From positions 9,128 through 73,127 of the forward strand of contig JAMOSO010000001.1 in assembly GCA_027063065.1 (NCBI GenBank): 64,000 nucleotides of DNA, read 5' to 3'. A program made the position numbers and the translations under genes. Under the pieces are notes generated by a model. That model was not told the DNA's origin, ran no database searches, and saw only the letters and a list, made by a program, of their open reading frames with translations. The first letter of the stretch is position 1. The number at the start of each line of letters is the position of its first letter. Of this stretch, positions 4,287 through 38,750 are shown in pieces. Source of the stretch: Planctomycetota bacterium. Its GTDB lineage: Bacteria > Planctomycetota > JAMOSO01.

Positions 4287-5000
4287 TTATTCTGGCGCAC
4301 CTATTGAAAAAAGCATTTCCAAATCTGTCGGAGCACCCTCTAAACCAAGGTGCTTAGCCAATTTAGTATTATACATATCTGCAAATTCTGCTTTTTTTGA
4401 TAATTTATCTGAAAATTTAGTATATTTAGTATCACTATCATCACTGCCCGGCTGTTTTACACGTCCACCTTGCACGCGTACACTAGGGCTGGTAGGACGC
4501 CTAGGCACACCCTCTGAATAATGTCTAGCCGGATGCTTTTTTACCCATTTAAAAAAATTTTTATGTGCTTTTTTTTCTGTCTTAGGCAATTTATCACCCT
4601 GTTCTGCTGCCCAAGCTTCATATTCATTAGCTATCAATTGCTCTTCTAAGTATTTTTTATAATCACTACGACTTGCATCTGGATGTTCAGCTTTCCAAGC
4701 TTTTTCAGCCTCTTTTTTTGCTAATTTTTGCTCTGCTAACCAAGTTTTATAAGCTTTACTAGCTGTATTATATGCAGACAACGCCTCTTTATATTGATCT
4801 TTAAGATTTTTATTAATCGCTTTGATAATTTTAGGTGCTTCACTAGGCTTATTAAAAATAATAGATCCATAGGCTATAAAACCATGGCAATCTTTAATCA
4901 ATAACATTTGCTCATAGGTTTTGTCTTCGTCCTTTTTAGCCTGCAAATCACTCATACCTAAAAACAACAAAAAACACATAAGCAAGCGTATATACTTCAT
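4287..5000 (-). CDS. Secreted lysine-rich hypothetical protein
   Basis: 237 aa. N-terminal signal peptide MKYIRLLMCFLLFLGMSDLQA. The remainder is K/E/A-rich and predicted helical. No recognisable family. Confidence 0.55.
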   Translation of the reverse strand: MKYIRLLMCFLLFLGMSDLQAKKDEDKTYEQMLLIKDCHGFIAYGSIIFNKPSEAPKIIKAINKNLKDQYKEALSAYNTASKAYKTWLAEQKLAKKEAEKAWKAEHPDASRSDYKKYLEEQLIANEYEAWAAEQGDKLPKTEKKAHKNFFKWVKKHPARHYSEGVPRRPTSPSVRVQGGRVKQPGSDDSDTKYTKFSDKLSKKAEFADMYNTKLAKHLGLEGAPTDLEMLFSIGAPE

Positions 5001-8929: not shown

Positions 8930-11015
8930 TTATATTAAAAATATTAACTTTATATACCAAACCCCATTATTGGTACCGTTAATTTTATTAGCTAGTTTAA
9001 TTTTTTTTAAAGATGCCACCAAAGACATACAATATATAGACTCACAATACGAACATCTTATATCTAACAAAGCTACTGTTGCATCTACCGAATCAATACA
9101 TCCTAAACAATTTTATAATAAAAAAACTTACAAGCATCAAGTTGTTATAACCAATCAACATAAACTAAATTATAATTTAATTTGGTATAGTCATTCACCA
9201 ACACCATTAACCTTGCCCGGATATATATTACATTATTCTGGACAATATATCCCGCTATATCCCAATGCCAATAATTTTGGGTTTAATTATCGTCAATATT
9301 TATTACGCCGTAATATTAATGCCATTGTTAAAACTAAAATAAAAAATATCCAAATACTAAAAAGAGAACCTAATATATTAGGCACTCTTGAACATATAAG
9401 GTATAAATTTCAAAACTTATTGTTTCATAAAATGCCCATCAAAGAAGCATCTGTCATCAATGCTTTGCTAACGGGCAATCGCAATTTTATTGACGAACAA
9501 ACCAAAAACATTTTTATCAATACTGGCACAGCGCATTTATTGGCAATTAGCGGATTGCACTTGGCCCTAATAGCCAGCTTACTCTATTGGTTATTAGGTT
9601 GGATATTACCATACTATAAACATCGCATACCAATTGTAATATGCGTGATTATCGTATTGATGGCATTTAGCGGCTCGCATCCGCCTGTTGTTAGAGCTGG
9701 CCTAATGGTTATATTAGTTGCCCTAGCATTTTTAGTTAAACGGCCTGTACAATTTTTTAATATTTTATGCGCCTCATTAATTATAACTTTATTAATTTGG
9801 CCTTATCAATTATTTAACACTGGACTGTACTTAAGCTATGGTGCTGTCATGGGGATTGTATTAAGTATAAATTATTATAACCCTTCATCATTTTTTGGGC
9901 GTTTAATGGTGGTCTCAACCAGTGCTTGGCTTTGGACAATGCCTATAATTTTATTTACATTTAATAGCTTTCAAATTTTTAGTCCCATTTGCAATTTAGT
10001 CATCGTGCCAATTTTTAGTGTTTTTTTAACTATTGAAATTGTATTAATTATCATTGCCCTATGCACAGGATTTACTTGGGCTTGGTATTTAATTGCCAAA
10101 GTCTGCACCTTATTTTTATTATTAGTGCATAACATTAATCATATATTGCCACCATCTATCTTTTTACCACCACCAAATGCTATATTGGTAGTTAGTTTTT
10201 TATTGGGGATTTTATTATTTTTACAGCATTATAAAAAAGGCATAATAATTAGTCTGATAAGTGTCTTAATTTACTTACCTTGGGGCTTGGGGTTTTTAAG
10301 CTCTTCAGCAAATCAAATTATATTTTTAAATGTCGGCGTAGGCGATAGCACACTATTAACCAGCAATAAAAAAATTGCTGTTATCGATTGTGGAGGGTTT
10401 AAAAATGCTACGCAAAATGCATTATTACATCGTGGCTTTACAGAAATAGAATATTTATTTTTAACCCATAGTGATATGGATCATATAAAAAATATAAAAC
10501 AATTAATGCAAAATTTTAAAATAAAAACATTAGTATTACCTAGAGCTATTTTAAAAACATCTTTAATCAAATATATTATTAAAAAATCACCAAAAACTAT
10601 TTATGTATCTGAAAATGATTTATTAAATTTTGAAAAATTTAAAATACGCATTTTAAATCCACCATATAAAATAAAGCATAAAATTACTAATAATAACGAA
10701 AACAATTATTCTATCGCCATGTTAATTAGTCATAAAAATAAACCTTTAATATTTTTAGGTGGTGATATTGAAACTAAAAGCAAAAAACGTTTATTAAATA
10801 AATACGCTTTATTATTACATAAAATTAAAATATTTAAAGCTCCTCATCACGGACGCAATTCAATACGTGATAAGTTTTTTATTCGCAAAATCAAACCAAA
10901 AAATATTATTATTAATGGAATCACCAATAAAAAAATGAATACATATTTAATAATGTTTAACCATAATAATATTATTAATACACGTTTTACTGGTGAAACT
11001 GATATAAACTTATAA
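8898..11015 (+). CDS. comEC: DNA internalisation-related competence protein ComEC/Rec2 with C-terminal metallo-beta-lactamase domain
   Basis: 705 aa. Central polytopic competence domain (GTAHLLAISGLHLAL). C-terminal MBL-like part (FLNVGVGDSTLL, LTHSDMDH, APHHG). Confidence 0.8.
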   Translation: MFNIILSKIVIYIKNINFIYQTPLLVPLILLASLIFFKDATKDIQYIDSQYEHLISNKATVASTESIHPKQFYNKKTYKHQVVITNQHKLNYNLIWYSHSPTPLTLPGYILHYSGQYIPLYPNANNFGFNYRQYLLRRNINAIVKTKIKNIQILKREPNILGTLEHIRYKFQNLLFHKMPIKEASVINALLTGNRNFIDEQTKNIFINTGTAHLLAISGLHLALIASLLYWLLGWILPYYKHRIPIVICVIIVLMAFSGSHPPVVRAGLMVILVALAFLVKRPVQFFNILCASLIITLLIWPYQLFNTGLYLSYGAVMGIVLSINYYNPSSFFGRLMVVSTSAWLWTMPIILFTFNSFQIFSPICNLVIVPIFSVFLTIEIVLIIIALCTGFTWAWYLIAKVCTLFLLLVHNINHILPPSIFLPPPNAILVVSFLLGILLFLQHYKKGIIISLISVLIYLPWGLGFLSSSANQIIFLNVGVGDSTLLTSNKKIAVIDCGGFKNATQNALLHRGFTEIEYLFLTHSDMDHIKNIKQLMQNFKIKTLVLPRAILKTSLIKYIIKKSPKTIYVSENDLLNFEKFKIRILNPPYKIKHKITNNNENNYSIAMLISHKNKPLIFLGGDIETKSKKRLLNKYALLLHKIKIFKAPHHGRNSIRDKFFIRKIKPKNIIINGITNKKMNTYLIMFNHNNIINTRFTGETDINL

Positions 11016-22683: not shown

Positions 22684-23307
22684 TTAATTAGTTTCACCTG
22701 GAGAGAAAAATTTATCCGCTCCAATCATTGTAGCATCTGTAGGTGCCGCACTAGATGCAGCAGAAGTATCTATATCTTCTTTAATATCAGTAACTTTTTT
22801 AACTGAAGCATCTGTTTTTAAGACATGAAAATATTCATTACCTTCACCCCAAAATGATGGATAATCAGAAATATGAACTGTAGTTTTAATATTTACAGAA
22901 GCAGCTAAAGTTAAAGTATTTAATGCATAATTAGAATTGATGACTTTTGTAGGAGCTGTGACACTGTCTAACTCAGGAACTTTTAAAGCACCACGTTGAG
23001 GCGATTCAAAAGTTTTTACAGATAAGTTTTGATCATTCATTAAACATGCAAATGCTTGACCTACGCCATTGTCGCTAGCATCAACATTAGCTTTAGCCGC
23101 TTCTAAACCAGGAAACACATCTTTGTTATCCATAGTGTACATAGCCATTGAACTTGCCATTGCTTTAAGATTTGACATAGATTTAACAGCATTGGCTTTT
23201 TCTTTTGCCTTGCCAAGTGATGGCAATAACATTGAAGCCAAGATTGCGATAATCGAAATTACAACTAGCAATTCGATAAGGGTGAAGCCTTTTAGTAGTT
23301 TTTTCAT
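22684..23307 (-). CDS. Prepilin-type N-terminal cleavage/methylation domain protein (PVC-type pseudopilin, DUF1559-like)
   Basis: 207 aa. MKKLLKGFTLIELLVVISIIAILASMLLPSL prepilin leader plus hydrophobic helix. C-terminal FHVLKTDASVKKV motif. Strong SD (aggagg) upstream. Confidence 0.85.
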   Translation of the reverse strand: MKKLLKGFTLIELLVVISIIAILASMLLPSLGKAKEKANAVKSMSNLKAMASSMAMYTMDNKDVFPGLEAAKANVDASDNGVGQAFACLMNDQNLSVKTFESPQRGALKVPELDSVTAPTKVINSNYALNTLTLAASVNIKTTVHISDYPSFWGEGNEYFHVLKTDASVKKVTDIKEDIDTSAASSAAPTDATMIGADKFFSPGETN

Positions 23308-23342
23308 ACTACCTCCTAAAAAAAAGAAAAAAGTGTAAATAA

Positions 23343-23371
23343 AACATATACCACATATCTGATATTGTCAA
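23343..23371 (-). promoter_or_regulatory. Sigma70-type promoter candidate for pseudopilin gene 1
   Basis: Read on the minus strand: TTGACA (23371-23366), 17-nt spacer, TATGTT (23348-23343). It lies about 35 nt upstream of the ATG at 23307. Confidence 0.45.
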
Positions 23372-23408
23372 TACATAATTTAAAATATAGTATGCTCTAT
23401 CGTACAAG

Positions 23409-24026
23409 TTAAGGCTGTGTTCCTTCTGTGGCAAATAATCCCGTGCCTATCAATAACGAATCTGACACCTTATTAGTGCTTACACCTACGCCAATTTCAT
23501 CCATATTTACAATTTTTTTTACAGAAGCATCGCTATATAAAGCATGAAAATAAGATGAGCCTGCTTCCCAAAAACTAGGCCTGTCCATTATATGAATGGT
23601 AGTCGACAAATTTATCCCCTTAGATAATGTATTTGTATTAAATACATAACTAATATTAGTAATAGAAGTAATTGGATCATTACCAACAACTACGGGACGT
23701 TTTAAGCGTGCCTTTTGAGGACACTCTAATACATCATTGCTTAAATCTTGATCATTTAATAAAACCCTAAATGCATCATCCACATCTGAAGATGCTGTAG
23801 TATTAGCCTTAGCTGTAGTTAAACCAGGATAAATGTCATTATGATCCATTAAATACATAGATACTGCACTATCTAAAGCCTTTAAATTGGACATTGATTT
23901 GGATGCATTAGCCTTTTCTTTAGCTTTAGTCAAAGAAGGCAATAACATAGACGCCAAAATGGCAATGATAGAAATCACCACCAACAACTCTATCAAAGTA
24001 AATTTTTTAATTAACAAACGTTTCAT
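23409..24026 (-). CDS. Prepilin-type N-terminal cleavage/methylation domain protein (paralog of 22684-23307)
   Basis: ORF 23409-24056; preferred start ATG 24026 (MKRLLIKKFTLIELLVVISIIAILASMLLPSL). C-terminal FHALYSDASVKKI. Collinear with the neighbouring paralog. Confidence 0.85.
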   Translation of the reverse strand: MKRLLIKKFTLIELLVVISIIAILASMLLPSLTKAKEKANASKSMSNLKALDSAVSMYLMDHNDIYPGLTTAKANTTASSDVDDAFRVLLNDQDLSNDVLECPQKARLKRPVVVGNDPITSITNISYVFNTNTLSKGINLSTTIHIMDRPSFWEAGSSYFHALYSDASVKKIVNMDEIGVGVSTNKVSDSLLIGTGLFATEGTQP

Positions 24027-24179
24027 ACCAACCACTAGTTTTAAAATCGGGCACAACTATAATAAAAAATATTTCACATTCAATTAAAAGTATAAATAAA
24101 AGTATTTAAATAGCAGTTGACAAATTTATATTCCACCTTAAATTAATACTGCTTTTAAAATCACTATTTGGAGAGGTCT

Positions 24180-25724: not shown

Positions 25725-26112
25725 CAATATTCAATCTAAAAAGTCTTTAATTAGTACGAAATAATCCCATTATAGCCTAAAAAAATAAATTTATAGTTAT
25801 ACACCGCCTATCAATCCAAATTATCGGCAAAAATACTTGACCTAAGCGATTTATCTGATTTAATCATCAGACGAGATTGATTGACTGCCAAAATTGTATT
25901 GTAAAAAAACCGATTTAAACGATGGGTTTTACCGATGATTAAGATTTAATTACAAGATGTTTATGATTGAGTTTTACTTTGTAATAATACTTAAATTCAA
26001 TAATGGCAATAGTTTATCAAAAATCAATGAAATATATCAGCGTTCCTGTTATAGTAATAGTATTAGTAGTTAAAAGAGGTAATAGTAACTATTCTTTTTT
26101 TATAAAATAAAT

Positions 26113-27951
26113 ATGAATAAAAAACAATTAACATTTATGGATAATATTAATACTAATGGCCGTAAAGAGCCATTAACTATTATTAAAGCTAATAATTTAG
26201 AAAATAGCACTATAACTTTTGATGAAATTTTACTAGGTCAAACTTCGATTGTAGCTCCGGAAGGCGCTGTACTTGAAAGACGTGTCAATCCTGATACATC
26301 ACAAGAATATTTAGTTAAACGATTTAACCATGTAGTTGGAACACATAATGGTGATTTAAGATCAGTTGAAATAGAAATAGAAACACTACCCAGTCAGGGC
26401 TTAACAGACTATTTTGATGATAAAGTATTATTAACTCTACATTCTTTAGCTTTAGAAAAAGACTCTTATGAGTATTACACAAATATTTCAGAAATTTGCG
26501 CCGCTAGAGATTGGCCTTTAAATGGTGAATATATTGCTAAAGTACGCAAAAGCTTAGAAAAACTAGAAGGTACTTCTATTGCCAGTGATCAATTTGTTGA
26601 TCCTGATACTAACGAATCAATTAAACAAAGAATAAATTTATTATCTCGTTATGTGCGTTTTAAAGACGAACAGCGTTCAACATCAATCAAAAAAGACGGT
26701 ATTTTATATGATGATGAAATTAAATTTAAAAAAGATTTTTTAATTGAGATAAATCAATTTTTTTTTAAGAGTTTGCAAAAACAAAAAATAAAACTTGATA
26801 TTAAGGTTTTAAATTCATTTAGAAATAAAACAGTTGAAAAATTATATCGCTTTTTAAATACAATGTTTCAATTAAAATCAGAAATTGAAATAAATCTAAC
26901 AGATTTATGTGAAACTTTAGGCATTACTGTGCCTAAGTATATTTCTAATATAAAACGTAATATTTATGTACGTTATATCAAAGAAATAGAAAAAAATAAT
27001 ATAATCAAACCTTTTGATATTAAAACTAATTATTATAAACATAATAAAATTTGGCGTGTGAAATTTGAACGTGGTGAATTTTACGAGTCTCTTGAAGATA
27101 GATGGGCAATGAAACCAGCTTTATTTAATATTTTTAATTATTTGCACGCCGAATTAAAATTTAAAAAACATGAAGCTCATACTTTGATGGGTAAATATGC
27201 CAATGAGCTTATTCAAGAAAATATCAATTATTTGCGTTTATCATTAGAAATTACTCCAAATGTGATTAGATATCCAAAAGCTTGGATGAAAAAATCATTA
27301 GAAAACAATTGGGATCATAGTTTAAATTTACAAATCTTAAGAGAGTTAAAACACAGTAAAACACCATTAACACAATATCAGCAATCTTGGGAAAAACGTG
27401 ATTTTAATGAAGAAGAAAAACAAGCATTTGAACGTTGTACTATTAAATTTAAAATACCAGAAAACATAGTTATTCCTTGGATTAAAACCCATGCTAATTT
27501 TGATTATATCAAACAATTAGATAAGGTTTTTGATTTATTAAAACCTGAAGAACAAAAATATGATTATTTAGCTACTATGATTAGACATCGAGACTCCAGA
27601 GTTTGGCGTATAACAATACCTGGCAGTGAGCAAGAACAAGTTGCCAATCGTATACAAAAACAGAAATATCAATCTTTGTTTGCTAATGAAATTGTAATTG
27701 AACCAGATGACATAGAAACATCAGATAATATCACACCTGTCGCCCCTCCTATGCCCAATATATTAAATTTAATGGACGCCTTAAAACAACATTTAGGAGA
27801 AGAATATAATAAATTGTTTAATGAAACATATATGGCTGCGGAACCTGTTTTAGTTTTAGGTGGCATTGATAGCCCAGAGGCAATTAGAGATGCAATTTTA
27901 ATTCAGATGCAGAAAACATATTTGCCAAATTTTATTACGCAAAATGATTAA
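26113..27951 (+). CDS. Large hypothetical protein whose N-terminal half resembles RepA/TrfA-type (winged-helix) replication initiators; function unverified
   Basis: 612 aa. Segments LPSQGLTDYFDDKVLLTLHSLAL, ISEICAARDWPLNGEYIAKVRKSLEKLEGTSI and FRNKTVEKLYRFLN...INLTDLCETLGI follow, from memory, the pattern of replication-initiator-protein-A/TrfA families. The C-terminal ~280 aa is unassigned. No SD precedes the ATG. Confidence 0.5.
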   Translation: MNKKQLTFMDNINTNGRKEPLTIIKANNLENSTITFDEILLGQTSIVAPEGAVLERRVNPDTSQEYLVKRFNHVVGTHNGDLRSVEIEIETLPSQGLTDYFDDKVLLTLHSLALEKDSYEYYTNISEICAARDWPLNGEYIAKVRKSLEKLEGTSIASDQFVDPDTNESIKQRINLLSRYVRFKDEQRSTSIKKDGILYDDEIKFKKDFLIEINQFFFKSLQKQKIKLDIKVLNSFRNKTVEKLYRFLNTMFQLKSEIEINLTDLCETLGITVPKYISNIKRNIYVRYIKEIEKNNIIKPFDIKTNYYKHNKIWRVKFERGEFYESLEDRWAMKPALFNIFNYLHAELKFKKHEAHTLMGKYANELIQENINYLRLSLEITPNVIRYPKAWMKKSLENNWDHSLNLQILRELKHSKTPLTQYQQSWEKRDFNEEEKQAFERCTIKFKIPENIVIPWIKTHANFDYIKQLDKVFDLLKPEEQKYDYLATMIRHRDSRVWRITIPGSEQEQVANRIQKQKYQSLFANEIVIEPDDIETSDNITPVAPPMPNILNLMDALKQHLGEEYNKLFNETYMAAEPVLVLGGIDSPEAIRDAILIQMQKTYLPNFITQND

Positions 27952-29748: not shown

Positions 29749-30678
29749 TTATTTATTATTCATATTCCAAAGGATGTTTTGCCCCTGTCCCATCATGGTT
29801 TTGGGCAGTTGACCGTTCCATCTTTGTGCACGGATATAATCTACCAATGTTTTTGATTGTTGTAGTGCTTGGGCTTTTTTGCGCATTGCTTCGGCTTCGG
29901 CAGCGCCTTTTAGTTTGATTGCTTCGGCTTCGGCAATGGCTTCTATTTTGATGGAATAAGCTTTGCCGTCTGCAGTTGCCATGGTTGCTTCGCGTTTGGC
30001 GTTAGCTGTATTTACAGCACGTTGTGCTTCTAGTTTTTGACGTTCTAGGCGATGCATTTCAGCTGCGGCAAGGTTTTTTTCAGTTTGTTTGGTTTCGATA
30101 GATTGAATATATTTTTGTGGCAGTCCTAAATCCTCAAGTTGGGCAGAATCAAGTTTGACGGGATAATCTGCCATTGCCTGTTGTAGCTCTTCCTCTATTT
30201 GTGTAATTACTTTGTTTCTGTTTTGTATGATTTCTTCTGCTTTATAATGAGCCAAAGCATCTTTGGCAGCAGAGCGTAATTTAGGGTCTAAAATTCTAGT
30301 TTCAAATTGATCTAATCCTCCATAGCTTTTAAATAATTCAAATGCTAAATCTCGTTGAACAGTCCAGTTAATAGACACTTTGGCTGTGATAGGCATTTGT
30401 TCGTGAGTGGATGCGCTTAGTTTTTCTAAATTTTTACGTGTTCTAATTTCTAAAATCACTACAGAGTCAACTAAAGGGATTTTCATATGTAGCCCGGGGT
30501 TTACTTGTTTGGTTGCTTCTCCAAATCTTTTGACAATACCCACATGCCCTTCTTGCACAGTGAATAAACTTTGGAAGATTAAAATTGCCAGTATGATAAT
30601 TATTAAAAAGCTAATAGACGCGCCTTTGCCTTTATGGGCTATCACTTGAAAATCAGGCATATTATTTTGAACAGTCAT
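29749..30678 (-). CDS. SPFH/Band-7 (prohibitin-like) membrane protein
   Basis: ORF 29749-30759. Preferred start is ATG 30678 (MTVQNNMPDF), preceded by a ggagaaac SD. One N-terminal TM helix, SPFH domain (EGHVGIVKRFGE...), and an Ala/Glu-rich coiled-coil tail. Confidence 0.85.
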   Translation of the reverse strand: MTVQNNMPDFQVIAHKGKGASISFLIIIILAILIFQSLFTVQEGHVGIVKRFGEATKQVNPGLHMKIPLVDSVVILEIRTRKNLEKLSASTHEQMPITAKVSINWTVQRDLAFELFKSYGGLDQFETRILDPKLRSAAKDALAHYKAEEIIQNRNKVITQIEEELQQAMADYPVKLDSAQLEDLGLPQKYIQSIETKQTEKNLAAAEMHRLERQKLEAQRAVNTANAKREATMATADGKAYSIKIEAIAEAEAIKLKGAAEAEAMRKKAQALQQSKTLVDYIRAQRWNGQLPKTMMGQGQNILWNMNNK

Positions 30679-30915: not shown

Positions 30916-30931
30916 GTCCAACGCGTTGGAC
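30916..30931. repeat. 16-bp perfect palindrome GTCCAACGCGTTGGAC, copy 1
   Basis: Read directly from the sequence. An identical copy lies at 30954-30969. I spotted no further copy by eye in the window. Confidence 0.9.
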
Positions 30932-30936
30932 AGTGG

Positions 30937-30950
30937 GTTTCACGTGAAAC
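30937..30950. promoter_or_regulatory. parS: parS centromere-like site (core GTTTCACGTGAAAC)
   Basis: 14-bp perfect palindrome identical to the core of the conserved chromosomal parS consensus TGTTNCACGTGAAACA. It sits 62 nt upstream of the parA ATG. Confidence 0.8.
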
Positions 30951-30953
30951 TTT

Positions 30954-30969
30954 GTCCAACGCGTTGGAC
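30954..30969. repeat. 16-bp perfect palindrome GTCCAACGCGTTGGAC, copy 2
   Basis: Identical to 30916-30931. It ends 6 nt before the putative parA -35 element. Confidence 0.9.
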
Positions 30970-30975
30970 TAAAGT

Positions 30976-31004
30976 TTGCATGTTGCCGAGCTTGAGCTTA
31001 TAAT
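30976..31004 (+). promoter_or_regulatory. Sigma70-type promoter candidate for parA-parB
   Basis: TTGCAT (30976-30981), 17-nt spacer, TATAAT (30999-31004). The parA ATG at 31012 lies 7 nt after the -10 element, with no SD. Confidence 0.55.
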
Positions 31005-31011
31005 CTTAAAT

Positions 31012-31830
31012 ATGTATTCTAAAAAAATAACGTTTATTAATCAAAAAGGTGGTGTAGGTAAAACTACATTATGTGTTAATGTTGCCGCTGATTTAGCTAT
31101 GCGTAATTATAAGGTTTTATTGGTTGATACTGATCCGCAAGCTAATGCTACTACTGTTGTGCATGAAGCTCCAGAAGGGGCGCCAACTATTGCAGATGTG
31201 ATGTTGGGTGATGTGAGTGCTGCCGATGCGGTGGTAACTGCACGCAAAAACTTAGATTTATTACCTTCTGGTGAAAATATGTGGAATTATTCATTTCAGG
31301 TAGTGCAACAAAATTTAGGTGATTTGCTAGGCCGTTTTCGTGAGGTTATTGATTCGGTTGATAAAGATTATGATTTTATTATTTTTGATACAAATCCATA
31401 TCCTGCTACTTTATGTATATTGGCTTTGGCTTTTTCTCAGCATAGTATTACGCCAATGTTTCCAGAGCCTTTTGCATGGGATGGGTATTCGACTTTATCG
31501 GGTTTAATTAATGATATTCGCAAGGATTTTAATCCAGACATACAACCTTTGGGTATCGTGGTAAATAACTTTAATGGATCAAAAAATATACATAAGGAAG
31601 TTTGCATGGCATTGTTTGAATCTGTTCCAGATGAAGTTTTTAAATCGGTCATTAGAACAAATAGTAACTTATGTAAGATGGGAAATGAATTAAAAACTAT
31701 TTTCGAAATAGAGTCTCCCAGCGGTAAAGGAAATAAGGATTTTTCGGCTTTGACGGATGAAATGTTAGATAAACTGTGTATGCCGATACGTAAAATGGAT
31801 GATGATATAATTAAAGCCCTGCAAAATTAG
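31012..31830 (+). CDS. parA: Chromosome partitioning ATPase ParA/Soj
   Basis: The ORF track starts at TTG 30976, inside the promoter. The ATG at 31012 gives [19 protein letters not shown] (deviant Walker A) and [13 protein letters not shown]. Confidence 0.9.
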
Positions 31831-31838
31831 GAGGTTTA

Positions 31839-32717
31839 GTGGCTGATTTTTCTGAAATAACCAAACAATTTAAAGAGAGTCAATCAGGCAAAAACAAACC
31901 AGCTCAGGGGCGTATTGCCGCTAAAGTGGCAAAGTTTAAACAGGATAAAATTGCTTCTGAATTTAAATTGGTTGAACTTAGTTCTATTGCACCCGATCCT
32001 AATCAGCCTAGGCGTATTAAGGATACCAAGAGTCGTGATTTAAAGTCCTTAGCTAAAACAATTAAAGAAAAAGGTGTTTTAGAACCTTTGCTTGTGCGTG
32101 AAACAGCAACAGGGTTTTTGTTAGTAGCTGGTGAAAGGCGTTATTGGGCTAGCCATATAGCTAAATTACGTGCTGTGCCTGTTAGGGTTGTGCATCTTAA
32201 TAGCCAAGAAATAGCCGAGGTACAATTAATTGAAAATATTCAGCGTAAGGATTTAAATCCATTAGAGCGTGCGAGAGGGTTAAAAAATATTGCCGATTCT
32301 GGAGGTAGCACAAAAGATATTTATAAACGAGTAGCAATTTCTCGCTCTTTATATTATGCGTTACTTTCTTTATTAAATTTACCAGAAGAAATACAGGATA
32401 AAATAGATCAAAGCTATGCTAACGAAAATGAGGGTATACCCCTTAGAGAATTAATTGAATTGGCAAAGATTAAAGACATTAATAAATTAAAATCAGCTTT
32501 TGAAGATTTAGATAGTGGCACTAGTTTAATAGAAGAACGACAAAAAAATAATCCTAAAGCATCAACTATTGCTAAAAATAAAGTTAAAGATTTTCAAAGA
32601 GTCTCTAATAAACAAGGGGTTGAAATATTATTGCGTATTCCAGCAGAGATGAAACCAAATGAGCTAGATTTAGAAGATATTGATGCGTTGTGGCAAGAGG
32701 TGTTAAATAAATTATGA
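31839..32717 (+). CDS. parB: Chromosome partitioning protein ParB/Spo0J
   Basis: 292 aa with a GTG start after an aggagg SD. ParB-box LEPLLVRE...FLLVAGERRYWAS and an HTH region. The N-terminus is Lys-rich. Confidence 0.9.
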   Translation: MADFSEITKQFKESQSGKNKPAQGRIAAKVAKFKQDKIASEFKLVELSSIAPDPNQPRRIKDTKSRDLKSLAKTIKEKGVLEPLLVRETATGFLLVAGERRYWASHIAKLRAVPVRVVHLNSQEIAEVQLIENIQRKDLNPLERARGLKNIADSGGSTKDIYKRVAISRSLYYALLSLLNLPEEIQDKIDQSYANENEGIPLRELIELAKIKDINKLKSAFEDLDSGTSLIEERQKNNPKASTIAKNKVKDFQRVSNKQGVEILLRIPAEMKPNELDLEDIDALWQEVLNKL

Positions 32718-34501
32718 TTATAAAATGGTGTAAAAATATTAAATCTTTAATTGTTTTGTTGCTAATAAGTAACGTGGCACTGGCACAAGATTTTCCTAGT
32801 AAAAACTGGCATGAATCAGTTGATGAACTTGCGTCAACAAATGCAATAAAGGGGGGGGCTTTATCGATATTTGCAGGTCAAAGTCCAAAAAGTTTTAATT
32901 ATTATTTAGATACTAATTCATTGACGGCACAAATTTTTGGTTTTATGTTTGAAACTCTCTTAGGTGCTAACTCTGTTACTATGCACGATGAACCAAATAT
33001 TGCATCTAAATGGCAAATAAGCCCTGATAAGCTTACTTTTAAGTTTTGGATTGACCCCGCCGCAAAGTGGAGTGATGGACAACCCATTACTGCTAGTGAT
33101 GTATTATTTACTTATGATACTATCTTAAATCCAAAAAATATGACAGGCCCACATAAGGTTGGCTTGGAAAGGTTTAAAAGGCCAGTAATTATCAATGATA
33201 GTCAGATTGTCTTTACAGCAAAAACTATTCATTGGTCAAACTTATCAGTATTAGGTGGTTTACAAATTTTGCCCAAGCATATATTGGCAAATAAGGATTT
33301 TAATAAAATTAATTTTGAGTTTCCCGTAGTGTCTGGCCCTTATAAATTGGGCACACATAATGAAACCATTAGTTTAACGATGGAACGTAATCAACAGTGG
33401 TGGGCTCAAAACAAAATGAGTAATCGTTATAAATATAATTTTGATAAATTGATATTTAAATTTTATGCTGATCGCAATAATGCTTTTGAAGCTTTTAAGA
33501 AGGGTGATATCGACTTATTTGCTGTATATACAGCAAAGCGTTGGGTTAAAGATGCTGTCGGCAAGAGTTTTGATAAAAATTGGATTATAAAACAACGCAT
33601 ATATAATTTTAAACCAGTTGGGTTTCAGGGCTTTGCAATGAATATGCGTAGAGAACCGTTTAATAATTTAAAGCTTAGAAAGGCTTTGTCTTTGTTGTTA
33701 AATCGTGAAAAGATGAATACACAATTGATGTATTCGCAATATTTTATGTTAAATTCTTATTATCCTGATATTTATGATTTGAAACATAAAAATTCCAACA
33801 AAAAAATCGTCTTTAATAAAAGTTTGGCGAGAAAATTATTAAAAGAAGCTGGTTGGGTGGTTAATCCAGCGACTGGATTACAAGAAAAGGACAAAAAGCC
33901 TTTAGTGATTAAGTTTTTAACTAGAGACGCCAGTGCCAATCGTTTTTTAGCGATTTATCGGGAGGACTTAGCCGATGTTGGTATCCAATTAAAAATTATT
34001 CAAAAGGATTGGGCTTCATGGGCTAAAGATATGGATTCATATAATTTTGATATGACTTGGGCTGCTTGGGGGGCGGGTATTCGTAAAAATCCCGAGGCAA
34101 TGTGGCATTCTAAAGAAATTAATCGTCCGTCTGGCATTAATATTACTGGGTTTAAAAATACGCAAGTAGATACGTTAATTAATAAACAAATGGGTATTTT
34201 TGATATGGATAAGCGTCATGAAATTTGTCGTCAAATAGATAAAATAGTATATTCGCAATATCCTTATGCGTTACTTTGGATGAATAGTTATACGCGGTTA
34301 TTGTATTGGAACAAATTTGGCACTCCTAAAACTGTTTTAAGTAAATATGGCGGTGAATCATCAGCGTATGTTTATTGGTGGTTTGATGAAGATAATTTAT
34401 TAGATTTAAAAGATGCTCAAGCAGATGATGAGGCTTTACCAGATATGCCTTTGGATGTGGTGTTTCCAATGTGCGCTAAAGATACGCTTAGCAATCGTTA
34501 G
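32714..34501 (+). CDS. ABC transporter substrate-binding protein, family 5 (peptide/opine/nickel; YejA/OppA-like)
   Basis: 595 aa. Signal peptide IKSLIVLLLISNVALAQ and family-5 SBP architecture. The start overlaps the parB stop (ATGA). Confidence 0.85.
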   Translation: MIIKWCKNIKSLIVLLLISNVALAQDFPSKNWHESVDELASTNAIKGGALSIFAGQSPKSFNYYLDTNSLTAQIFGFMFETLLGANSVTMHDEPNIASKWQISPDKLTFKFWIDPAAKWSDGQPITASDVLFTYDTILNPKNMTGPHKVGLERFKRPVIINDSQIVFTAKTIHWSNLSVLGGLQILPKHILANKDFNKINFEFPVVSGPYKLGTHNETISLTMERNQQWWAQNKMSNRYKYNFDKLIFKFYADRNNAFEAFKKGDIDLFAVYTAKRWVKDAVGKSFDKNWIIKQRIYNFKPVGFQGFAMNMRREPFNNLKLRKALSLLLNREKMNTQLMYSQYFMLNSYYPDIYDLKHKNSNKKIVFNKSLARKLLKEAGWVVNPATGLQEKDKKPLVIKFLTRDASANRFLAIYREDLADVGIQLKIIQKDWASWAKDMDSYNFDMTWAAWGAGIRKNPEAMWHSKEINRPSGINITGFKNTQVDTLINKQMGIFDMDKRHEICRQIDKIVYSQYPYALLWMNSYTRLLYWNKFGTPKTVLSKYGGESSAYVYWWFDEDNLLDLKDAQADDEALPDMPLDVVFPMCAKDTLSNR

Positions 34502-34528
34502 CCAGTAAGAATATTAATTGTTTAATTA

Positions 34529-35557
34529 ATGAATAGATTAGATTATTTATTGCGTAGAATATTTTTAATTATTCCTACATTTTTAGGTATAACTTTTTTA
34601 TGTTTTAGTATTTGCAGATTTGTACCAGGTGGGCCTGTTGAGCAGGCTTTGGCAAATATGCGAGGTGGCAATAATCCAAATAATGTTACAATGCAAACTC
34701 AAATATCACAAGCGCAAATACAGCAGTTGCGCAAGCATTATGGGTTTGATAAGCCATTATTAATTGCATATAAAGATTGGTTATCTGATGGGATTGGTAT
34801 GAATACGCCAAGTTTTAAATTTCCAAATAAAACGGCTTGGCAGTTAATATCTAGTCGTTTTAATATCTCATTAATTTTTGGCATAACTGGATTTATTTTA
34901 ACATATTTAATTTGTATTCCATTGGGCATTATAAAAGCTTTAAAAAATGGCGGACGCTTTGATATGTTTTCTAGTTTAATTATATTTGTGGGTTATTCTA
35001 TACCTAGTTTTGCATTTGGTATGTTGTTAAAAATGTTGTTTTGTGGAACTTCAGATAAGTTTTTTGATTTTTTTCCTGTGGCTGGGTTTACTTCAAGTAA
35101 CTTTGAACAATTAAGTTGGTATGGTCAATTAGTAGATATTTCTATGCATATGGCGTTGCCAGTATTGTGTTATGTGATTGGCAATTTTGCAGTATTAACC
35201 ATTTTAATGAAAAATTCTTTATTGGAAGAAATCAGTAAAGAATATATCCGTACGGTTTTAGCAAAAGGGGCTACATTAAACCGTGCGATTTGGTTTCACG
35301 CCTTGCGTAATGCTTTAATACCTTTAGCTACAGGTTTAGGATCTATTTTGACGTTGATGTTTTCGGGGGCAGTTTTAATTGAACAAGTATTTGAAATACC
35401 CGGAATGGGGCGCTTGTCTTTAGATGCTATAGTTAGCCGTGATTACCCTGTTTTTATGGGTATTTTAGCTTTAACTTCTATTTTAGGATTGCTTGGCCGA
35501 GTTCTTTCAGATGTGTTATATATGATTATTGACCCGCGAATAGATTTAGGTAAATAA
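34529..35557 (+). CDS. ABC transporter permease (YejB/OppB-like)
   Basis: 342 aa, 6 TM, with an EAA-type loop (EYIRTVLAKGATLNRAIWFHALRNALIP). Confidence 0.85.
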   Translation: MNRLDYLLRRIFLIIPTFLGITFLCFSICRFVPGGPVEQALANMRGGNNPNNVTMQTQISQAQIQQLRKHYGFDKPLLIAYKDWLSDGIGMNTPSFKFPNKTAWQLISSRFNISLIFGITGFILTYLICIPLGIIKALKNGGRFDMFSSLIIFVGYSIPSFAFGMLLKMLFCGTSDKFFDFFPVAGFTSSNFEQLSWYGQLVDISMHMALPVLCYVIGNFAVLTILMKNSLLEEISKEYIRTVLAKGATLNRAIWFHALRNALIPLATGLGSILTLMFSGAVLIEQVFEIPGMGRLSLDAIVSRDYPVFMGILALTSILGLLGRVLSDVLYMIIDPRIDLGK

Positions 35558-37143
35558 TGATATCTGAATATGCTATCTTATGGCAAAGATTTAAAAAAAT
35601 TAAACGCGCATATTGGTCGTTATTATTTTTGTCAATTGCGTATTTATTGTCATTGGGTGCCGAAATATTTTGTAGCAATATCCCCTTAACAATGCGATTT
35701 GATAATCAGCGTATTTACCCTGTGTTATCACATTATTTTGAATCGTTTTATTATACAGAAGATTATTTTTTACATAATAATCGTCAGACGCGACCTAATT
35801 ATAAATATATTATTAATTCTCAAGAGTTTAGATCTAATCCTAATAATAGTGTATTAATGCCGTTAATACCTTATGACCCATTAGAAAGTATGAGTGTAGA
35901 TGCATTAAAAGATATGCAAAATGTAGAAGTACGTTTAGTGCCAACATCGACTAATGCCTCTGTTGATATTAATGGTGCTGGCATTGTTAAACGCTCTAAA
36001 GGTTTGCAGTCTATTTTAAGTATCGATGATAGTTTTGTGGTTGGAAAAAAAATTACTGATTTTTTTGATTTCAATGCAGATTTAAAAAATGCAATTGATA
36101 ATCGTTTTAAAAATAAAAATAGTAATTTATTTTCTTCTGTAATTCACAAACAAGGTATAACAATTGTAATTACCTTACGCAAGTATAGAGCACATTTAAA
36201 TGCTCCATCTAAATTGCGCTTAAAATTGAAACTAAAACAAGTTAATGCTAAAGAAGTTAAAATGCTGTTTAATGCTAATAAAGAATTAATTAATGCAAAA
36301 GGCAAATGGCAACAAATAGAAGCTAAATTTAAAAAGCAGATATTACATGCGGTTGAAATGAGTAAAACCAATAATATTAATCCGTTTATAGTTAATATTA
36401 ATCATACACGTTTTAGAGTGTATGTAAGACAATTAGGCATTGTTTTTCCTATGGCGCCTAATAAATATCATTGGTTGGGTTTGGATGATACTGGTCGAGA
36501 TGTTTTTGCCAGAGTGTTGTATGGGTTTAGAACTTCTATGACTTTTGCAATTATTTTAGTTATATTTTCTATGGGTCTGGGGGTTGTAATTGGTGCGATT
36601 CAAGGCTATTTTGGTGGAATAATTGATATAGTAGCCCAGCGTTTAACTGAAATTTGGGAGTCATTGCCTTTTTTGTATGTGATGATTTTTATGGGTGCAG
36701 TATATGGGCAAAGTTTTATTTTGTTACTATTTTGTTATGCTATTTTTAATTGGATAGGCATTTCATATTATATGCGAGCAGAATTTTTGCGTTTACGTAG
36801 TCTACCATTTGTGGAATCTGCAAAAACTTTAGGTTTGCCAACTTGGCGCATAATATTTTTACATATTTTACCAAATGCTCTGGTGCCTATTGTTACTTTT
36901 TTTCCGTTTTCATTGGTTTCAGCTATTGGTTCATTGACAGCGTTGGACTATTTAGGTTTTGGTCTACCTGTGCCAACGCCAAGTTGGGGTGAACTATTTA
37001 AACAGGCACAAAATGATCCAAGTGCATGGTGGTTAATTTTGTATCCATTTTTAGCGTTATTTGTTGTTATTCTCTTGGGTGTTTTTATTGGCGAAGGCGC
37101 TAGAGCTGCTTTTGATCCTAAGCGTGAAAGTAAAGTACAATGA
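35557..37143 (+). CDS. ABC transporter permease (YejE/OppC-like) with enlarged first periplasmic loop
   Basis: 528 aa. WLGLDDTGRDVFARVLYG motif at about aa 307, and an EAA loop (ESAKTLGLPTWRIIFLHILPNAL). Confidence 0.85.
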   Translation: MISEYAILWQRFKKIKRAYWSLLFLSIAYLLSLGAEIFCSNIPLTMRFDNQRIYPVLSHYFESFYYTEDYFLHNNRQTRPNYKYIINSQEFRSNPNNSVLMPLIPYDPLESMSVDALKDMQNVEVRLVPTSTNASVDINGAGIVKRSKGLQSILSIDDSFVVGKKITDFFDFNADLKNAIDNRFKNKNSNLFSSVIHKQGITIVITLRKYRAHLNAPSKLRLKLKLKQVNAKEVKMLFNANKELINAKGKWQQIEAKFKKQILHAVEMSKTNNINPFIVNINHTRFRVYVRQLGIVFPMAPNKYHWLGLDDTGRDVFARVLYGFRTSMTFAIILVIFSMGLGVVIGAIQGYFGGIIDIVAQRLTEIWESLPFLYVMIFMGAVYGQSFILLLFCYAIFNWIGISYYMRAEFLRLRSLPFVESAKTLGLPTWRIIFLHILPNALVPIVTFFPFSLVSAIGSLTALDYLGFGLPVPTPSWGELFKQAQNDPSAWWLILYPFLALFVVILLGVFIGEGARAAFDPKRESKVQ

Positions 37144-38750
37144 CAAAAAAATTGCTTTCTATACATAATTTAACAATTTCATTTCCTTCGTCTAAAGGCA
37201 GGGTAGAAGTGGTGAAGGGGTTAAATTTAAATATTAATAAGGGTCAGATAGTTGGCTTGGCTGGCGAGTCAGGATCTGGCAAAAGTGTAACAGCTATGTC
37301 AATATTACGCTTAAATCCATCTCCACCAGCTAAGGTAGAAAGCGGCAGTATAAAATTTTTAGGTAGTGATTTGTTAACTATGCCCTTAGGTGATTTGCAA
37401 AAATTGCGCGGTCAGGATATTTCAGTTATTTTTCAAGAACCAATGACGGCTTTATCACCTTTGCATAGCATAGGCAGTCAATTGGTAGAAACTTTACAAT
37501 TACATCAAAATATTAATAAATCAAAAGCATTAAAAATTGCAATGCATTGGTTGCAAAAGGTAGAGATTCCAGATGTAGCAAATAAAATTAAAGCATATCC
37601 TTTTGAATTGTCGGGAGGTCAACGTCAGAGGGTTATGATTGCAATGGCTTTAATGTTAGCTCCAAAGTTAATTATTGCCGATGAACCAACCACCGCTTTA
37701 GATGTAACGATACAAAAACAGATTTTTAAATTAATGTTAGATTTAAAAAATGCAGACACAGCCATGTTATTTATCACACATGATATGGGGGTAATATGGC
37801 AAATGTGCGATAGGGTTGCGGTGATGCAAAATGGTTATGTAGTTGAAGAGGGGGCGGTAAAGCAATTACTTACGCATCCAAAGCACGCATATACACAACA
37901 GCTAATCAAATCTGTACCTCGATTAAATACAAACGATAAACATATTAGCCAATCGCCAAAAGAGGTTTTATTGCAAGTGCAAGATTTGCATACTTGGTAT
38001 CCTATCAAACAAGGTATCTTTGCCAAAACAGTTGATTATGTAAAAGCAGTAAATGGAGTAAGTTTTGATATTAGGCAGGGTGAAACTTTAGCGTTAGTAG
38101 GTGAGTCGGGCTGTGGCAAAACTACTTTAGGCAGAACTTTAATGGGTTTAGAGGTGGCTAAAGCAGGTGCCATAAATTTTGCCGAAGTTGATTTATTAAA
38201 ACACAATTTAAAACATACACGTCAAATGCGTCAATCAATGCAGATGGTTTTTCAAGATCCATATTCTGCGTTAAACCCTAAAATGAGAATTTGTGATATT
38301 ATTACAGAAGCGCTTGTGGTGCATAATATAATCACAGCAAATCAGCGATGGGTGCGAGCCACAGAGTTGCTTGATGAAGTGGGCTTATCTTCTAAAATTT
38401 TAAATCGTTATCCGCATGAATTTTCAGGAGGCCAACGTCAGCGTATATGTATTGCACGGGCGTTAGGTTTAAAGCCTAAATTAATAATTTTGGATGAATC
38501 CTTATCAGCTTTGGATGTATCTATACAAGCTAAGGTTATCGAGTTATTACAAGAACTCAAACAACGACATAGGTTATCGTATTTATTTATTTCTCATGAT
38601 TTAAGTGTAGTATCGCAAATTTCAGATCGCATAGCAGTAATGCAAAAAGGCAAAATTGTTGAAATAGGATTGCCATCACAAATTATTGCTAACCCGCAAA
38701 ATAGTTATACCCAAACATTAATATCTGCTATTCCAGTTTTAGGTAGTTAA
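37140..38750 (+). CDS. ABC transporter ATP-binding protein with duplicated ATPase domains (YejF-like)
   Basis: 536 aa. Two Walker A motifs (GESGSGKS, GESGCGKT), two LSGGQRQR signatures and two Walker B motifs. Confidence 0.9.
   Translation: MTKKLLSIHNLTISFPSSKGRVEVVKGLNLNINKGQIVGLAGESGSGKSVTAMSILRLNPSPPAKVESGSIKFLGSDLLTMPLGDLQKLRGQDISVIFQEPMTALSPLHSIGSQLVETLQLHQNINKSKALKIAMHWLQKVEIPDVANKIKAYPFELSGGQRQRVMIAMALMLAPKLIIADEPTTALDVTIQKQIFKLMLDLKNADTAMLFITHDMGVIWQMCDRVAVMQNGYVVEEGAVKQLLTHPKHAYTQQLIKSVPRLNTNDKHISQSPKEVLLQVQDLHTWYPIKQGIFAKTVDYVKAVNGVSFDIRQGETLALVGESGCGKTTLGRTLMGLEVAKAGAINFAEVDLLKHNLKHTRQMRQSMQMVFQDPYSALNPKMRICDIITEALVVHNIITANQRWVRATELLDEVGLSSKILNRYPHEFSGGQRQRICIARALGLKPKLIILDESLSALDVSIQAKVIELLQELKQRHRLSYLFISHDLSVVSQISDRIAVMQKGKIVEIGLPSQIIANPQNSYTQTLISAIPVLGS

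Follow-up and report, generated by a model that had tools for sequence, protein, structure and literature searches.

Twin palindromes around a canonical parS core at the parA promoter of a Planctomycetota chromosome: a candidate composite centromere

Introduction

The switching of chromosomal parAB expression and of ParB loading has been called poorly understood (PMC7022226). The locus described here raises this problem in a compact form: in front of the parAB genes of an uncultured Planctomycetota bacterium, a canonical parS core is enclosed by two identical copies of a different perfect palindrome, and it has to be asked which proteins read these sites and whether the palindromes could control ParB. 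The arrangement was noticed in a first-pass annotation of the window, by which the whole analysed stretch of 64 kb is meant. This annotation regarded the flanking palindromes as likely operators of a second dimeric DNA-binding protein and knew of no composite centromere of this form. Here, the site, its genomic setting, its relatives and the adjoining ParB protein are analysed computationally, and the possible functions of the palindromes are weighed against each other.

Three dyads in a 54-bp unit

The unit consists, in this order, of a left flanking palindrome, pal-L (GTCCAACGCGTTGGAC, 30916-30931), the spacer AGTGG, the canonical parS core GTTTCACGTGAAAC (30937-30950), the spacer TTT and a right flanking palindrome, pal-R (30954-30969), which is identical to pal-L; none of the three dyads is assigned to a strand. 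pal-R is followed by TAAAGT and thus stops 6 bp before the -35 hexamer TTGCAT at 30976. pal-L can also be read as the 7-bp arms GTCCAAC and GTTGGAC with GC between them, and the whole unit forms a larger near-palindrome with the 19-nt arms TAGTCCAACGCGTTGGACA and TGTCCAACGCGTTGGACTA. Tested against the parS consensus tGTTNCACGTGAAACa, the 14-bp core is perfect; the 16-mer GGTTTCACGTGAAACT at 30936-30951 matches TGTTTCACGTGAAACA at 14/16 positions, with both mismatches located at the outermost bases. The positions and letters given by the first-pass annotation, including the distance to the -35 element, turned out to be exact, and the GC content of 30-40% that it reported for the surrounding DNA agrees with the measured range of 0.25 to 0.41 across the window.

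Both types of site are rare. The palindromic 16-mer occurs twice in the 64 kb, both times in the unit, even if up to 3 mismatches are allowed; in dinucleotide-preserving shuffles, the mean was 0.04 and two copies were reached in 0/100 cases, which bears out the earlier claim that the palindromes are improbable by chance. The parS core is found once at no more than 1 mismatch, compared to a mean of 0.01 in shuffled sequences and a match in 1/100 of them. When all perfect palindromes of at least 12 bp in the window were listed, the three dyads of the unit were the sole GC-rich intergenic ones of at least 14 bp, and the half-sites GTCCAAC/GTTGGAC have just 2 further occurrences in the 64 kb. The contig was extended through its end-proximal genes, which added around 15 kb and gave around 79 kb of DNA of this organism in all; neither parS nor the flanking dyad has a further copy there.

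The parA promoter and the parAB operon

Downstream of the unit lies a sigma-70-type promoter on the plus strand, TTGCAT-17-TATAAT (30976-31004), with the -35 hexamer at 30976-30981 and the -10 hexamer at 30999-31004. The dyads are positioned at about -42 to -95, all of them upstream of the -35 hexamer, and the centres of parS and -35 hexamer are 35 bp apart. The parA start codon at 31012 follows the end of the -10 hexamer after 7 nt and is not preceded by a Shine-Dalgarno sequence, which suggests that the parA mRNA of this organism is probably leaderless or nearly so.

parA (31012-31830, plus strand) encodes a small Walker-type ParA of 272 amino acids without an N-terminal DNA-binding domain, as judged by Pfam, and parB (31839-32717, plus strand) encodes a protein of 292 amino acids with ParB_N and HTH_ParB domains (Pfam, TIGR00180). 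ParB scores 115 bits against TIGR00180, and the nearest solved structure in a PDB search is that of Thermus Spo0J (E = 9e-30). As in chromosomal ParABS systems, a cognate ParA/ParB pair is thus encoded beside parS. The parB stop codon and the beginning of the next gene overlap; this gene encodes an ABC-transporter binding protein (SBP_bac_5), and genes for a peptide-type ABC permease and ATPase come after it (window 32714-38750). This overlap is kept in L001 (3991-4116), the contig of a relative described below, and suggests that parAB is co-transcribed with the transporter operon.

On the other side of the unit, an SPFH/Band-7 gene (29749-30678, minus strand; Pfam) is transcribed divergently from parA. 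It may be served by a possible minus-strand promoter reading from 30885 to 30857, around 30 bp from pal-L. Towards its C-terminus, the SPFH protein contains an Ala/Glu-rich repeat, which is specified by imperfect 33-nt tandem repeats (ATTGCTTCGGCTTCGGCA...) at window positions 29883-30007.

Conservation of the unit in relatives

The window ParA has two close relatives, with 89% and 86% identity, and the next match is at 36%. For ParB, one relative with 79% identity was found, beyond which only the N-terminal half is matched by generic ParBs. The closest ParA relative is encoded on L001, a 4.1-kb Logan contig with a GC content of 55%, compared to 33% in the window. The order of its genes, an SPFH gene divergent from parA-parB-SBP, is the same as in the window, and its upstream region reads GTCCAACGCGTTGGAC-tgg-GTTTCACGTGAAAC-ta-tTCCAACGCGTTGGAC-tttga-TTGACA-18-TATAAT. 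pal-L (L001 2155-2170) and the parS 16-mer (L001 2173-2188) are identical to those of the window, and pal-R (L001 2190-2205), which reads TTCCAACGCGTTGGAC, differs by a single change of an outermost base. Altogether, 50/54 positions of the unit are identical (93%); apart from this base, only spacer indels distinguish the two versions. By comparison, the parA genes share 73% nucleotide identity and 40% at third-codon positions, and the intergenic DNA shares 28% upstream of the unit and 24% in the segment from the promoter to the ATG. The -35 and -10 hexamers hold their position 5-6 bp past pal-R in both organisms, with unrelated spacer sequences (the distance between the centres of parS and -35 hexamer is 33 bp in L001), and in the alignment the unit and the two hexamers stand out as a conserved island. 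The parA leader of L001 is, unlike that of the window, 45 nt long (L001 2235-2288). An identity of 50/54 next to flanks of 24-28% indicates that all three dyads, together with the position of the promoter, are under strong purifying selection. Adjoining sites of the unit are separated by 2-5 bp in the two genomes; since the centre-to-centre spacings are 20 and 18 bp in the window and 18 and 17 bp in L001, the helical phasing of the dyads is not fixed.

The second relative, L002, is a contig of 1.3 kb with a ParA of 86% identity and a GC content of 39%, which covers 173 bp upstream of parA. Neither parS nor the dyad is present in these 173 bp (L002 1-173); the upstream gene is a different one, whose end is 100 bp away from parA, and a Shine-Dalgarno sequence is present. 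The lineage can thus do without the composite site at the parA promoter, and the conservation in relatives that the first-pass annotation had proposed to check is seen in L001 and not in the 173 bp of L002. Three vent-metagenome runs contain the locus in identical sequence and add no diversity, so that the unit is known from two genomes, both of uncultured organisms.

A search for the composite in larger collections used the pattern CCAACGCGTTGG-N(1-20)-TTCACGTGAA on around 600 Gb of GTDB genomes and on JGI metagenome contigs. It returned 2 + 1 matches, a number close to the chance expectation, all of which were lone 12-mers in GC-rich coding DNA and none of which was bracketed. PLSDB plasmids and phages held no composite, and in the literature the palindrome was encountered in primers and linkers only. 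In agreement with the first-pass annotation, which knew of no composite centromere of this form, none was found in the literature or the sequence collections, and a parS between twin palindromes at a promoter appears to be a form not described before. In Methylobacterium sp. W2 (L003 1982-2012), a full canonical parS, TGTTTCACGTGAAACA, has GTCCAACGCGTTGGC 1 nt upstream, which matches 14/16 bases of the dyad; the site lies in GC-rich, apparently coding DNA, and around one such case is expected by chance in the collection as a whole. One exact 18-bp copy of the palindrome in Klebsiella phages forms an isolated hairpin after a gene and was judged unrelated.

A ParB with altered DNA contacts

In Caulobacter ParB, the contacts to parS that ParB and Noc have in common are made by Q162, G170, K171, S172, N178 and R204, specificity lies with R173 and G201, and ParB variants of dual specificity have been obtained experimentally (PMC7383237). 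These positions were scored in an alignment of the window ParB with its 118 nearest homologs. Among the homologs, the usual residue is present in 110 (Q), 110 (G), 114 (K), 109 (S), 118 (R), 108 (N), 106 (G201) and 105 (R204) sequences, and the arginine of the LRLL motif is found in 108 of the 118. The ParB of the lineage keeps S172, R173 and R204; at the other positions, it has K for Q, A for G, I for K, A for N, and N for G201 together with an insertion of 3 residues, and the arginine of LRLL is a serine. It thus departs from a set of contact residues that is 90-100% conserved in the homologs, and its recognition helix reads AISRSLYYALLSLL compared to the usual GKSRSxVANxLRLL. Box II is changed as well: GERRYWA takes the place of GERRWRA, which is present in 107/120 sequences (general form GERRxRA). 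The altered Box II (ParB residues 98-105) and the altered contact residues (159-207) are both found in the L001 ParB (P0122), and the altered Box II is shared by the L002 fragment, which spans Box II only. In an AlphaFold (AF2) model, the N-terminal domain and the HTH are confidently folded; the HTH has helices at 158-164 and 169-180 and pLDDT values of 81-91. With most conserved contacts changed, recognition of canonical parS in the usual manner cannot be taken for granted for this ParB, which may read either of the two palindrome types.

Variant ParBs of other replicons offer a comparison. Part of the helix pattern, ...SSITE(I/L)LSLN, recurs in two ParB homologs within the helix GKSRSSITE(I/L)LSLN. 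Their genes are located on plasmid-like contigs that also encode an RPA-type Rep protein, a resolvase and a MazE/PIN pair, and 2-3 copies of TGTCGGAC|GTCCGACA are found beside parB. The corresponding TGTCGGACGTCCGACA dyads are located at 9140-9159 and 10442-10465 of L012, at 4499-4518 and 5801-5824 of L013, and at 1176-1195, 1502-1521 and 1770-1785 of L016, all of which are plasmid-like contigs. They are apparently variants of parS with a half-site that is unlike the canonical one only at positions 3-5. With GT-CGG-AC in the plasmid sites, GT-TTC-AC in canonical parS and GT-CCA-AC in the flanking dyads of the unit, the three half-sites agree at G1, T2, A6 and C7 and disagree at positions 3-5. 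However, neither parS nor another candidate dyad was found within 5-20 kb of three chromosomal ParBs with a helix of the type ...VTE..(S/T)(I/V)A (L011, L014 and L015), and no rule leading from helix to site can therefore be drawn.

Chromosomal setting

The window belongs to the main chromosome, as it contains gapA, trpB, fabH, rplU-rpmA-obg, a flagellar export cluster and PVC-type prepilins. rsmG (gidB) straddles its left edge, rpmH is located at around 4.1 kb, and the right flank beyond the window carries genes for RNase E/G, pilMNOPQ, ptsI and HPr. rpmH and rsmG are thus 27 kb and 30 kb away from the locus, which is surrounded by housekeeping genes. The prepilin-type proteins with N-terminal methylation motif (FTLIELLVVISIIAILASMLLPSL) are encoded by two tandem genes at 22684-24056 on the minus strand, an arrangement that is presumably typical of the PVC superphylum. 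Between around 39000 and 48000, an island of low GC content (0.25-0.30 compared to around 0.34 elsewhere) harbours a run of ORFs, among them one with a glycosyltransferase-like beginning, and may be a horizontally acquired surface-polysaccharide cluster.

The cumulative GC skew has its minimum at around 25 kb, although coding-strand orientation accounts for part of the skew. The window shows no enrichment of DnaA boxes, and no dnaA gene was seen in the roughly 79 kb, though rpmH and rsmG are present. At the skew minimum sits an ORF of 612 amino acids (26113-27951, plus strand), which the first-pass annotation had described as Rep-like. It has no family match at default thresholds and 1 homolog in a set of 5.8 billion proteins, and both proteins give sub-threshold matches to PF10134 (Replication initiator protein A) in the same region. 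A profile search of 1.84 billion representatives recovered 62 relatives, and PF10134 was above threshold in 9/10 of the more distant ones that were scanned, which supports the assignment of the ORF as a divergent relative of the RPA/RepA family of replication initiators. The 388 bp upstream of it (25725-26112) contain 5 copies of GATTGA, compared to 0.2 expected, and this hexamer is also enriched upstream of the homolog (L009 9421-11443). The sole close homolog, on L009, is likewise chromosomal and belongs to an organism with 50% GC. The region could be a plasmid-type origin on the main chromosome; a skew minimum beside an RPA-family initiator gene and not beside dnaA may point to an unconventional organisation of replication and segregation as a whole in this lineage. 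The first-pass annotation had also named the Rep-like protein, encoded 3 kb away, as a candidate binder of the palindromes. Its Rep-like character stood, whereas the link to the palindromes was rejected, as the iteron-like GATTGA repeats upstream of its gene are unrelated to GTCCAAC.

Proposed gating of ParB loading by a second DNA-binding protein

The reading that we favour, albeit tentatively, is that ParB loads at parS and that the flanking dyads are operators of a second dimeric protein, which gate the loading or escape of ParB as well as parAB transcription. We infer that the 54-bp unit is a composite protein-binding site under selection, which heads the parA-parB operon, probably together with the ABC transporter genes, in a possibly origin-proximal region. 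The central parS would be the ParB loading site of the chromosome in this region, and the twin 16-bp dyads would be bound by a second sequence-specific dimeric protein encoded away from the site. With gaps of 2-5 bp between adjoining sites and pal-R 5-6 bp from the -35 hexamer, occupied operators would hem in or exclude ParB at parS, or they might trap the closed clamp. Clamp loading or escape would thereby be gated, resulting in a switchable centromere, and the occupancy of the dyads together with ParB would set the adjoining parA promoter and possibly also the promoter of the divergent SPFH gene. Binding of proteins to the sites, a flank binder that differs from ParB and a mechanism of gating or co-repression are all inferred.

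Several observations argue for this reading. Each flank is a perfect dyad by itself, which points to dimeric binders, as a long hairpin would need pal-L to be complementary to pal-R only. The flanks differ from parS both in sequence and in half-site spacing, forming a 16-bp dyad next to a 14-bp core. The sole natural substitution in a dyad, that in pal-R of L001, affects the outermost G, which in a register of the ParB type would be the base read by the invariant Arg173 (PMC7383237); a 14-bp core, TCCAACGCGTTGGA, fits this substitution better, and it is counted in favour of a binder other than ParB. Taking the flanks as operators of a dimeric protein, as the first-pass annotation had done, is thus reasonable in view of the conservation of the unit; no binder was identified, however, and Pfam scans of 20 window ORFs revealed no gene for an HTH regulator or another candidate. 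ParA was ruled out as a binder of the dyads, as it has no N-terminal DNA-binding domain. Other findings speak against this reading: classical repressor sites cover the core promoter, whereas the dyads are all found on the upstream side of the -35 hexamer, the unit occurs in two genomes only and is missing from the 173 bp before parA in L002, and its sites have no fixed helical phasing between the window and L001. Furthermore, a ParB that is altered at most contacts leaves room for ParB itself on the flanks, and ParB-family sites with the same GT-NNN-AC half-site pattern exist elsewhere.

Could ParB itself read the flanks?

A serious, though less probable, alternative is that the flanks are themselves sites of the ParB family, bound either by a dual-specificity ParB, which would then have three adjacent sites, or by a ParB that reads the flanks only and is complemented by a second, canonical ParB. 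In this lineage, the contact residues that are near-invariant in the 118 homologs have been changed to K, A, I, A, S and N plus an insertion, S172, R173 and R204 are retained, and the HTH is still confidently folded in the model. GT-CCA-AC has G1, T2, A6 and C7 in common with GT-TTC-AC, and the GT-CGG-AC sites of the plasmid-like contigs show that positions 3-5 vary along with changes of the helix. In addition, cognate sites typically adjoin parAB, no regulator gene is located nearby, and dual-specificity variants of ParB are known from experiments (PMC7383237). The half-site GT-CCA-AC and an altered helix are both present; however, the centre of the flanking dyad is 2 bp longer than that of parS-type sites, and a similarity at 4/7 half-site positions does not reach statistical significance. 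Neither type of site varies at positions 3-5, and this strict conservation argues against a relaxed specificity, and the sole natural change takes away G1 of one half-site. The canonical parS is perfectly conserved and must therefore have a binder, which would need canonical specificity, and no second ParB was seen in around 79 kb of the genome.

A related proposal is a centromere with two specificities, whose ParB has a rewired recognition helix and would bind the new dyad in addition to the ancestral canonical parS; alternatively, the twin dyads would serve as a dedicated gate by which ParB loading is switched on and off. We consider this proposal rather doubtful. If true, a two-specificity ParB would be a natural counterpart of the dual-specificity intermediates in ParB/Noc evolution experiments.

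DNA structure and chance

That the unit acts as a DNA structure, such as a cruciform or hairpin between the divergent promoters or in single-stranded DNA during replication, is highly improbable. In single-stranded form, the folding energy is -26.1 kcal/mol (z = -10.5) for the 62-nt unit and -22.1 kcal/mol (z = -8.0) for its L001 counterpart. The site is also close to the skew minimum, and it has divergent promoters on its two sides, a position in which negative supercoiling builds up. However, a long hairpin follows automatically from nested palindromes, and selection for it would require neither self-complementary arms nor a perfect parS in the loop. The single 16-bp hairpins are weak (-3.6 kcal/mol), and a search of the unit against Rfam gave only matches to miRNA hairpins that were far sub-threshold and at chance level.

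Least probable of all, and already largely refuted, is that the palindromes are due to chance or are the remnant of a small mobile or dispersed repeat of the REP or MITE type without a function linked to parS: the inverted 19-nt arms look, on the surface, like terminal inverted repeats and one exact copy exists in Klebsiella phages, but instead of many scattered copies there are 2 in the 64 kb and 0 in the additional 15 kb, which contradicts the dispersed repeat that the first-pass annotation had named as the outcome opposed to its reading, the unit is retained at the same position in L001 with 93% identity despite saturated synonymous divergence and a different GC content, and the collections yielded lone 12-mers at chance level.

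Comparison with known systems

In terms of mechanism, the KorB-KorA system of the plasmid RK2 comes closest, by analogy, to a parS confined by operators. KorA and TrbA lock KorB, a clamp of the ParB family, at RK2 operators; transcription is controlled because the sliding clamp is stalled or locked by the second protein (PMC11790492, PMC13584720). Both RK2/IncP-1 KorB-KorA/TrbA and the unit described here combine a loading site for a ParB-family CTPase (OB in RK2) near a promoter with separate short palindromes, which in RK2 are operators (OA/OT) for a second dimeric protein. However, RK2 is a plasmid, whereas the unit is chromosomal. In RK2, OA overlaps the -10 hexamer and the distance to OB can reach 1.5 kb; here, two identical dyads enclose the loading site with gaps of 2-5 bp, every site is upstream of the -35 hexamer, and pal-R overlaps neither -35 nor -10. 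KorA is encoded in the KorB operon, whereas no KorA-like gene is present in the operon or among the scanned window ORFs. Thus, the unit shares with KorB/KorA a loading site near the promoter, and it has neither a partner gene in the operon nor an operator over the core promoter.

A chromosomal precedent is the centromere of Bdellovibrio bacteriovorus, in which short native flanks of parS block the accumulation of ParB in the native host only, an effect that was ascribed to unidentified host proteins or local topology (PMC10547168). There, as proposed here, the immediate flanks of a chromosomal parS act on ParB; no defined flanking motif was reported for Bdellovibrio (PMC10547168), whereas the flanks of the present site are explicit, identical and conserved dyads.

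Replicon-specific variants of parS such as the TGTCGGACGTCCGACA dyads resemble the flanks as perfect dyads of 14-16 bp beside parAB with half-sites that begin with GT and end with AC, and in these systems, too, the ParB helix departs from GKSRSxVANxLRLL. Further replicon-specific examples are the parS sites of Burkholderia cenocepacia c2, c3 and p1 and sopC of F, which has 7-bp arms and a 2-bp centre. Unlike the variant parS sites, the flanking dyad has a 2-bp centre, and whereas replicon-specific systems use several copies of one type of site, two types of dyad are interleaved here, one of which is the universal chromosomal parS. Two dyads of around 16-19 bp between divergent genes are also known from operators of the tetO1/tetO2 type, where the regulator is encoded by one of the divergent genes. 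The unit likewise has two copies of a dyad between divergently transcribed genes; however, the product of its divergent gene is an SPFH/Band-7 membrane protein, and its putative operators enclose a centromere.

Implications for ParABS systems

The unit combines known kinds of element, a parS centromere and putative promoter-proximal operators: a single parS is caged by two identical candidate operators against a promoter, and the ParB encoded next to it is altered at most canonical DNA contacts. The locus is thus an explicit, minimal and strongly conserved candidate for a control of ParB by the flanks of parS, as observed in Bdellovibrio (PMC10547168). Whether it turns out to be a gated centromere, the site of a multi-specificity ParB or a site of crosstalk between two ParBs, any one of these outcomes, if true, would extend the repertoire of ParABS systems.
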